Source: a virus (Monodnaviria; Loebvirae; Hofneiviricota; Faserviricetes; Tubulavirales; Inoviridae). From it: a stretch of 37,945 nt of DNA. Positions 2,661 to 4,054 of this stretch are shown one piece after another. The translations under genes and the position numbers were made by a program. The DNA lies in IMG/VR virus record IMGVR_UViG_2923312938_000004; one strand, given 5' to 3'. Below the pieces are notes generated by a model that saw nothing but the letters and a program-made list of their open reading frames with translations, ran no database searches and was not told where the DNA came from. Every line of letters begins with the position of its first letter. Position 1 is the stretch's first letter.

Positions 2661-3887
2661 TTAAAATGGAACTGAACGATTATAGAATTTACCTGCAATT
2701 ACCTGCCGATAAACATCCGGTATTGAAAATCTAATCTTCTCATCCTGTATATCCTCATGTCTGACAATAGCAGTAAAGACCGCCTCGTAATCATTACCGA
2801 GAAGATGAAATAGCTTTGCAACAGATTTAGAGCACTGCTTACGTAACCAGTGAACATTATGTTCCAGTGCATTAATTGCCTTTTTTTCGTCCGCTAAATC
2901 AGGACGATAAGGATTAAACTTGCGTGGTTTAGCTGGATTGATTTGTGCTGCATAATCACACAATCCCGTAAAATAACCGGCAATATCAAGCAGTACATCA
3001 ACAGGAACCCCTTTAAGCTCGACCTCAGAACGATTCCACGTACCACTGACTTTTTGTTCAAGCGCTTTATTATAGATACGCCAGTAAACACGCGATTGCC
3101 GGGAACCAAACGTGTACATCTCCTGCTTTAATACTGCGCGACCATCCCATTTACAGGAGTTCGAAAAACCCGGACGCGGTCCCTTACCACTATAAAACGC
3201 GCCAGAGCGATGATCGCGAACAGCAGCGTCACACGTAAAAACACCATCGAAATCATCAACAGCCAAATCAATACGCTTAAGTGTCGTAATATTGAGATGT
3301 TTCAACCATTTGAATACATCCTGAGGCTCAGTGCCACTAAATACATGAGCACATCCCAGACCGGAAATCTGTATATATACCGTGTTATTGTTTCCACCCC
3401 AGAACACAAAGCCATGTAAATTATTACCGCCATCGTCAGAAAATAATGGCGCAGAACAGCGATAATTAAAGCCACCACGATCCCGCTCCGGTCCCATACT
3501 CAAACCAAAAGCACTGGATAACCAGATTTTAAGACGATGCAAATACGCAGCCTGAACAGCCTGATTATATTGTTCAATATGCTGTTCAATAAACGCTCTA
3601 TCACCAGAAATGCCGCTACAAATTTTATCTGACTCCGCATCATCAGGAACCCAGCATCGAGTCTCAGGATCAACCACATCACGAAAGAAGGCATCACGAC
3701 CGGGCAGAAAATCACGCAGACGCGGCATGGAACCATACTTACGCCAGAACTGAATAGCGCCGTCGAAAGTCTCAAGATTCTTCAGCTCACTCATGGGGAA
3801 AGTGAATGCAAGATGGTCTATGAAGACGTGACGTATGGTTTCCTGAACCGGCTTCATTAGCAAACAGTCTCCTGATAACCGACCCAT
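2661..3887 (-). CDS. Rolling-circle replication initiator (Rep, gII/RstA-like), 408 aa
   Basis: Largest ORF, first in the minus-strand structural operon. Contains [11 protein letters not shown] and a Tyr-x-x-Lys segment ([12 protein letters not shown]) of the kind seen in Rep_trans/phage RCR initiators. An alternative start at 3857 has GGAG upstream and overlaps the upstream ORF stop as TAATG. Confidence 0.7.
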
Positions 3888-4054
3888 GAACCAGAAGGCA
3901 GTGCAACAGATACCAGAACGAAGTCATCCCCGATTGTTTCTAAGCATGCAATGACCAGCTCATTAAACGAGCTGAAAAAATCCCATTCACCATCAATGCA
4001 GGCATTAACGCCATAATCAGGAATGTAATCGTAGTAAACAATCTCGTGAGACAT
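3857..4054 (-). CDS. Small acidic hypothetical protein (65 aa) upstream of and overlapping Rep
   Basis: ORF conserved in all 5 copies. Its stop forms TAATG with the internal Rep ATG at 3855-3857, suggesting translational coupling. Only a weak SD (GGTG). Confidence 0.35.

Follow-up and report, generated by a model that had tools for sequence, protein, structure and literature searches.

The small acidic gene and rep at the replication module

The two genes considered here lie in a 37,945-nucleotide (nt) stretch of DNA, IMG/VR virus record IMGVR_UViG_2923312938_000004 (hereafter the window), which consists of approximately 4.6 head-to-tail copies of an 8.27-kb CTXphi-like filamentous prophage of Escherichia coli, with unit lengths of 8269, 8260, 8267 and 8269. 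Both are encoded on the minus strand. The first is a small open reading frame (ORF) for an acidic protein of 65 amino acids (aa), a member of PHROG 3104, and the second is rep, the gene of a Rep_trans (RstA-like) rolling-circle initiator. The small ORF occupies positions 3857-4054, with its ATG start codon at 4054-4052 and its TAA stop codon at 3859-3857, and its product ends in GYQETVC. A weak Shine-Dalgarno (SD)-like motif, GGTG (4060-4063, minus strand), was read 5 nt 5' of its ATG. As a consequence of the tandem array, the ORF and its junction with rep are present in five identical copies, the remaining four being located at 12126-12323 (with the same TAATG junction), 20386-20583, 28653-28850 and 36922-37119, also on the minus strand.

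The stop codon of the small ORF and an ATG in the rep frame overlap by 1 nt in the sequence TAATG (3855-3859, minus strand), the A at 3857 being at the same time the last base of the TAA and the first base of the ATG at 3857-3855. In the longest rep ORF, which comprises 408 aa and begins at the ATG 3887-3885, this ATG corresponds to codon 11. A GGAG SD motif for rep (3869-3872, minus strand) is found 11 nt 5' of the ATG at 3857, within the GYQE codons at the end of the small gene, while no SD-like motif was found in the 20 nt 5' of the ATG at 3887 (GTTGCACTGCCTTCTGGTTC). The shared stop and start, the distribution of SD motifs and the acidic composition of the small ORF had all been pointed out in a first-pass annotation of this DNA, and the three observations were read again in the sequence.

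Conservation of the small gene, its junction and the Rep start

The comparative data indicate that the 65-aa ORF is a genuine gene for a small acidic protein. Its translation matched the profile phrog_3104 with an E-value of 3.5e-25, residues 1-65 being aligned with positions 1-69 of the 69 in the profile, and PHROG 3104 was also matched by relatives from Vibrio (E = 1.4e-42 for VALG_phi8), from Proteus and from a type linked to Phage_GPA-type Rep proteins (hereafter GPA). In enterotoxigenic E. coli (ETEC) E24377A the 65-aa coding sequence is already present in the RefSeq annotation made with the Prokaryotic Genome Annotation Pipeline (PGAP), as WP_000017777.1. A single-sequence search with the small protein yielded 7 homologous clusters and a profile search 98 protein clusters, all labelled as hypothetical, from Escherichia, Proteus, Providencia, Photorhabdus, Xenorhabdus and many Vibrio. 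The frame was open over 63-84 codons in all 31 loci fetched with the small protein, which range from E. coli to Proteus, Providencia and Vibrio of the Vf33/f237 group, down to approximately 32% aa identity and with saturated synonymous sites, a degree of conservation well in excess of what chance would give.

With respect to the window sequence, the ratio of nonsynonymous to synonymous substitution rates (dN/dS) ranged between 0.14 and 0.5, with dS at saturation among distant pairs whose proteins remain 40-60% identical, and within Rep_trans-linked clades it was 0.03-0.37. Two AlphaFold2 runs, with 8 and 61 sequences, gave the same beta-beta-beta-alpha-beta core, with a predicted local distance difference test (pLDDT) score of 81-82, values of around 90 at residues 11-50 and low confidence in the last 15 residues. 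The protein is regarded as soluble, with a folded core at residues 1-50 and a flexible tail. It contains 11 acidic (D/E) and no basic (K/R) residues, with a net charge of −11, and this acidity is a family trait: among 61 aligned members the median net charge was −8 and the isoelectric point did not exceed 4.7 in any of them. The PHROG match, the homologues, the intact frames, the low dN/dS, the confident fold and the conserved acidity together support the reality of the gene. In this regard, the first-pass annotation had called the ORF conserved as a guess, which proved correct, and the analysis of conservation and codon-level selection in relatives that it proposed revealed a conserved frame under purifying selection. 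Its alternative of a spurious ORF is excluded by that selection and by the overlap kept in relatives.

No match to the small protein was found in Pfam, NCBIfam or PADLOC. The idea that it represents a split-off N-terminal domain of Rep was unsupported, since a profile search of 1.84 billion representatives gave 5 matches, none of them fused to Rep or to any other protein. Literature searches with the protein accession, PHROG 3104, the Vpf names and coupling with RstA did not return any functional study, and none of the papers in the library covered by these searches discusses the gene. In addition, one of the loci carrying the small ORF (L009; NZ_JAXCEI010000036.1, 8359 bp) belongs to an assembly of 'Actinomadura monticuli', although the contig in its entirety is an inovirus genome of enterobacterial type. 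In the small ORF it has the same DNA sequence as two IMG/VR loci (L022 and L023), and it is probably a contamination of the assembly.

The association with rep was surveyed starting from Rep and not from the small ORF, by means of a Rep alignment and 80 IMG/VR loci, 78 of which had upstream sequence. A member of the small-gene family was located directly 5' of rep in 55 of these 78 loci, including all 22 whose Rep was at least 44% identical; the 23 loci without it were mostly of the CTXphi/RstA class, with a Rep approximately 33% identical. Of 47 distinct small-ORF segments, 46 had an in-frame Rep ATG overlapping the 3' end of the ORF, by 1, 4, 8, 10, 11 or 17 nt. Each relative had a G-rich SD-like motif 7-12 nt 5' of the Rep ATG despite differences in the encoded residues, which are GYQE (GGT TAT CAG GAG) in E. 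coli and LGVFDDY (ttgggggtgttcgATGac) in Vibrio, and this SD block was the most conserved nucleotide stretch at the junction.

Sequence features expected of a translationally coupled pair are present, namely two cistrons on the same strand with neither promoter nor terminator nor intergenic space between them, and a conserved stop/start overlap. The small gene and rep would therefore be co-transcribed, as judged from the sequence. Folding of the single junction RNA was no better than that of shuffled sequences (z = +0.33), and RNAalifold on 13 junctions predicted 0 consensus pairs, so that no conserved structure over the rep start was detected. Likewise, no Rfam family reached its threshold and no recognised antisense or regulatory RNA was detected. 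Given that conserved RNA structure was not found over the rep start, coupling would proceed by termination-reinitiation with the local SD rather than by unmasking of the ribosome-binding site (RBS). Ribosomes ending the small protein at UAAUG would restart on rep, helped by the GGAG in the last codons of the small gene, and the small protein and a 398-aa Rep starting at 3857 would be produced in constant proportion. We consider a real gene with a coupled Rep start to be very probable.

The initiator itself belongs to the Pfam family PF02486 (Rep_trans), which it matched with an E-value of 1.5e-21 and 77.3 bits, above the gathering cut-off of 29.6; it also matched phrog_453 and was 33% identical to CTXphi RstA over 95% of its length. 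According to Pfam, PHROG, alignment and PGAP evidence, rep extends over 2661-3857 (minus strand), with the ATG at 3857 as the likeliest start. The first-pass annotation had spoken of an annotated Rep start at 3887, but nothing annotates Rep there: the PGAP entry in E24377A is a Rep of 398 aa (WP_000805824.1) that begins at the ATG of TAATG. The ATG at 3887 is created by the Ser-Trp codon pair of the small gene (tcA TGg) and is missing in the nearest divergent relatives, which have ttc tgg (L008) and acc tgg (L003). In the alignment of Rep with its relatives, similarity begins no earlier than the coupled ATG, which precedes the V[FK]ID[HY]LAFT block by a few residues, and a counterpart of the additional 10 residues was not found in any aligned relative. 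Since neither the ATG at 3887 nor this extension (3858-3887, minus strand) is conserved, the 10 codons are probably not translated as part of Rep, which most probably starts at 3857 and has 398 aa, not 408.

Two other readings of the junction must be weighed. That the small ORF is spurious and Rep is a 408-aa protein from 3887, or that 408- and 398-aa isoforms are both made, is extremely improbable. The 408-aa frame is certainly the longest open frame, and the classical annotation of Vf33/VfO3K6 (Vpf402) likewise chose the longest ORF. However, it lacks a preceding SD, its ATG is lost in the two relatives mentioned, the extension is without counterpart and the frame that overlaps it is demonstrably coding. 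In the other reading the ORF is a pure leader, as in tap-repA and repY-repZ, so that the act of translation alone controls rep and the peptide has no function. The conserved stop/start overlap and internal SD, and the position of the ORF directly before a replication initiator, would fit it. Nevertheless, in leaders of the tap/repY type the peptide is not under selection, whereas here amino acids are under strong purifying selection (dN/dS 0.03-0.37) while synonymous sites are saturated, and the product has a confident predicted fold and a conserved charge. An RBS-sequestering structure or an antisense RNA, also proper to such systems, was not found by the fold tests or among the known Rfam families, and no conserved structure sequesters the rep start. 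A pure leader is consequently highly unlikely. The comparative evidence instead supports the possibility, also raised in the first-pass annotation, of a coupled upstream protein with Rep starting at 3857, both coupling and N-terminus being deduced from sequence. The term leader protein used there undersells a product that is conserved and has a predicted fold.

Promoter region and prophage surroundings

The prophage has the gene order divergent small repressor, promoter/operators, small ORF, Rep_trans initiator, small structural genes, 442-aa pIII-like gene, Zot-like pI gene and secretin gene. Only one promoter-like site and no terminator-like site were found between 3800 and 4500. The former is a sigma-70-like promoter (TTTACA-18-TATGAT, 4117-4088, minus strand), with 10 of 12 matches, directed towards the small gene and rep. 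Two CGCATGCGC palindromes, one just downstream of the −10 hexamer (4077-4085) and the other just upstream of the −35 hexamer (4120-4128), are candidate operators for the divergent repressor. In the arrangement we propose, the small gene would open the replication operon of this integrative, CTXphi-like prophage, with transcription from the repressor-controlled promoter at 4117-4088.

The divergent repressor-like gene (phrog_2503; 4192-4473, plus strand) encodes 70 aa in copies 2-5 and in E24377A and is longer in copy 1. A run of seven A in copy 1 (4387-4393), as opposed to eight in copies 2-5 (12655-12662 in copy 2) and in E24377A, shifts the frame and converts the 70-aa product ending in KKKKAM into a 94-aa ORF ending at 4473, which is probably a sequencing artefact. 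The copies of the prophage differ at 13 positions, with 12 single-base insertions or deletions, nearly all in homopolymer runs, and 1 substitution, a pattern that looks like long-read assembly noise. A chromosomal tandem array and a concatemerised replicative form are both compatible with the window sequence, which does not tell them apart.

The queried region of 1.9 kb was 99.9% identical to an element adjoining hipBA in ETEC E24377A, and approximately 30 complete E. coli genomes contain the prophage, frequently as 2-4 copies. Megablast of the region against the phage collection gave 0 matches, and the element is known only as a prophage. In E24377A it is bounded by hybrid dif sites, at 7524 and 15794 of the corresponding locus (L001). 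An exact E. coli dif, allowing up to 3 mismatches, is absent from the window, and looser matching led to a degenerate phage attachment site (attP). The packaged strand can form a near-perfect hairpin of 100 nt (4881-4980, minus strand, recurring in each unit), with a DNA folding energy of −44.7 kcal/mol (z = −10.5). Its two arms are dif-like sites in inverted orientation (AGTGCGCATAA-TGTGTT-ACACGTTATGT), and the central part is left unpaired. This folded hairpin matches the forked single-stranded DNA attP of CTXphi.

Other features of the surroundings include two tandem repeats that recur in later copies, one at 1357-1406 (24-nt unit, 2.1 repeats) inside the 442-aa pIII-like gene and the other at 5103-5152 (21-nt unit, 2.4 repeats) in non-coding DNA between the attP hairpin and the secretin gene. 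In several related filamentous prophages of E. coli, IS110-family transposase genes were located directly upstream of the replication module (L003 3774-4727, L041 227-1192 and L042 221-1186), at only 2-3 nt from rep in L041 and L042. These transposases may stand in, as phage integrase, for Xer/dif integration.

Possible function of the small protein and comparison with known systems

It is possible that the small protein acts with or on the Rep_trans-type initiator, either as a stoichiometric cofactor or as a modulator of rolling-circle initiation. A function tied to Rep_trans is favoured by the linkage to rep, by the co-divergence with Rep and by the relaxed selection on the gene and its frequent loss beside an unrelated Rep. 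Regarding the linkage, in V. cholerae the repressor and the small gene are separated by other genes, whereas nothing is ever inserted between the latter and rep, and the small gene abuts rep likewise in Proteus, VALG_phi8 and VfO4K68. With respect to co-divergence, the identities of the small protein and of Rep were 77/77, 72/63, 57/57, approximately 44/48 and 33/36%. As for the unrelated Rep, a diverged branch of the small gene, distinguished by 8 inserted aa and by an extended C-terminus that carries a new SD, precedes a 666-aa GPA-type Rep, to which it is still coupled (ATGACTGA or TAGtATG), and has a dN/dS of 0.5-1.2. Two E. coli prophages of the GPA type (L004 and L043) do not have the small gene. 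For some 35 further E. coli genomes, megablast aligned no sequence before rep, a result compatible with either presence or absence of the small gene.

Several observations on the modules around the small gene can be added. The V. cholerae loci L034 and L035 have variable cargo between the repressor and the small gene (3441-4216), either a 113-aa ORF or a 185-aa exonuclease with an RNase_T domain, and L034 adjoins rtxA, i.e., the dif1/CTX region. One relative (L002) combines a small gene 97% identical with a different repressor and operator region, with the breakpoint about 15 nt inside the ORF. Another (L005) shares the repressor, the operators and the first 33 nt or so of the ORF with the window, and then diverges and has an unrelated Rep. 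The breakpoints of immunity-module exchange fall within the first 15-35 nt of the small ORF, in the conserved IVYYDY codons (window 4020-4054, L002 2992-3010, L005 797-830), so that its 5' end acts as a linker at which the immunity and replication modules recombine. In L004 (5142-5171) the repressor/operator module of the window is present and all that is left of the small gene is ATGTCTCA plus 19 nt, a remnant of 27 nt in frame with the Rep ATG, which looks like a clean deletion or a gene that was never acquired. Within Rep, the proteins preceded by the small gene have a variable segment of 10-45 aa inserted behind the first N-terminal block (residues 40-95 approximately; about 3575-3740 in the window, minus strand). 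CTXphi-type RstA, which has no small gene, lacks it and has instead an N-terminal extension of about 20 aa. The insertion is a possible docking segment for the small protein, but it is too variable to argue from.

It must be considered that a number of points weigh against a coupled gene whose product is a partner of Rep. As regards coupling, rep has its own SD, which makes independent initiation conceivable, and its start is not occluded by any conserved RNA structure. As regards function, co-divergence of the small protein and Rep is to be expected from physical linkage alone, the signal of relaxed selection beside GPA Rep rests on 5-17 substitutions per pair, and the gene is intact and coupled before that unrelated Rep. 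In addition, RstA of the CTXphi type, of the same Rep family, manages without such a gene, so the small protein is not essential to Rep_trans chemistry. Finally, structural or sequence relatives of known function were not found for the small protein and, therefore, any molecular activity attributed to it is a guess. Taking all this into account, a real coupled gene whose product is a partner of Rep_trans is the explanation that we favour overall, with moderate confidence. The partner function, taken separately and as judged from sequence comparison, is put forward tentatively. The more specific proposal that the PHROG 3104 protein is a dedicated and hitherto unrecognised partner of one large Rep_trans clade, an acidic cofactor or governor tuning nicking or re-initiation at the origin, is more speculative still. 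That clade takes in f237 of pandemic V. parahaemolyticus, dif-integrated phages of V. cholerae and ETEC prophages.

Two rival functions would place the small protein outside Rep. It might be an early protein directed at the host, such as an acidic DNA mimic or a factor with a role in anti-defence or host takeover, placed close to the promoter so as to be expressed early, its adjacency to rep being only a matter of operon packing. The conserved and extreme acidity, with hardly any basic residues, agrees with the strongly acidic surface of mimics of the Ocr and ArdA type, and small size together with a fold without known relatives is common to many phage anti-defence proteins. The gene moreover occurs with two unrelated Rep types and is dispensable in some phages, and those of the CTXphi type replicate without it. 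Nonetheless, no sequence or fold similarity to known DNA mimics or PADLOC models was found, the overlap with the rep start is kept in nearly all segments, the V. cholerae gene abuts rep without being promoter-proximal, and selection seems to be relaxed specifically beside GPA Rep, which would not be expected of a host-directed role; we consider this function not very likely. The second rival is an anti-repressor, or another component of the immunity circuit acting against the divergent repressor in the manner of RstC of RS1. In its favour, the small gene is the first one after the repressor-controlled promoter in E. coli, and the C-terminal tail common to both repressor types (KKKKAM) is basic, which would allow an acidic protein to bind to it. 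Co-variation with the cognate repressor/operator module is nevertheless absent: the same small gene is found with different modules (L002 and the window), and one module may be accompanied by the small gene (L005) or lack it (L004), while in Vibrio the homologues adjoin rep and the repressor belongs to a different family (DUF3693), with other genes between. An action on the repressor is thus unlikely.

A stop/start overlap within an operon is an ordinary arrangement, and the pair is already annotated in RefSeq and catalogued in PHROGs. The remaining interest lies in an unnamed acidic protein that accompanies Rep_trans initiators throughout a clade of inoviruses with medical relevance. Virulence traits of Vibrio and E. 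coli are carried or mobilised by integrative filamentous phages of this kind. If the protein were indeed a cofactor or regulator of Rep_trans, it would constitute a new replication component of integrative filamentous phages and a new class of rolling-circle accessory protein.

Among known systems, tap-repA of R1 and repY-repZ of ColIb-P9 have a short leader ORF, the stop codon of which overlaps or abuts the rep start, and translation of rep can depend on that of the leader. The sequence of the peptide is unimportant, and control is exerted through an antisense RNA and an RBS-sequestering structure. The arrangement is therefore alike, whereas the window protein is conserved and has a predicted fold, and neither conserved RNA structure nor known antisense RNA was found beside it. 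RstC, the anti-repressor of the RS1 satellite, is also a small accessory protein of the replication/regulation module in a CTX-type filamentous phage. It is encoded downstream of rstB, a position different from that of the window gene, no family match links the two proteins, and no co-variation with the repressor is seen for the window protein. The RS2 region of CTXphi (rstR divergent from rstA-rstB) likewise has a small divergent repressor and promoter/operators before a Rep_trans-type initiator, and CTXphi prophages, like the window element, occupy dif as tandem arrays and have a double attP folded into a hairpin. The difference is that in CTXphi-type loci rstA follows the promoter without any intervening ORF, while the window element has a conserved 65-aa gene inserted there and coupled to rep. 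To our knowledge, and in view of their gene order, Ff phages have no gene in the position before Rep, as the first-pass annotation had stated; this holds for Ff, but Vibrio phages do carry a homologue there.

These Vibrio phages, i.e., Vf33, Vf12, VfO3K6 (f237), VfO4K68, VALG_phi6/8 and the vB_Vipa series, have an unnamed 71-aa ORF of PHROG 3104 upstream of rep, similar to the window gene in size, acidity and position overlapping the rep start. The Vibrio members are only about 33% identical to the window protein and differ in the C-terminal tail, which is LGVFDDYCN with a 17-nt overlap, versus GYQETVC with a 1-nt overlap in E. coli. In the original records of Vf33, VfO3K6 and VfO4K68 the small ORF is unannotated and vpf402 starts inside it (at 7212-7415, 8031-8234 and, in L033, 2438-2704, respectively). 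The annotated start of Vpf402 in Vf33/f237-type phages is thus probably over-extended, apparently through the same overcall of the longest ORF as in the 408-aa frame. The ORF1-10 scheme of f237 omits the small gene, the site of which is flanked by ORF10 (Vpf152) and ORF1 (Vpf402). The comparison indicates that the gene absent from this standard scheme is real, widespread and tightly tied to rep.

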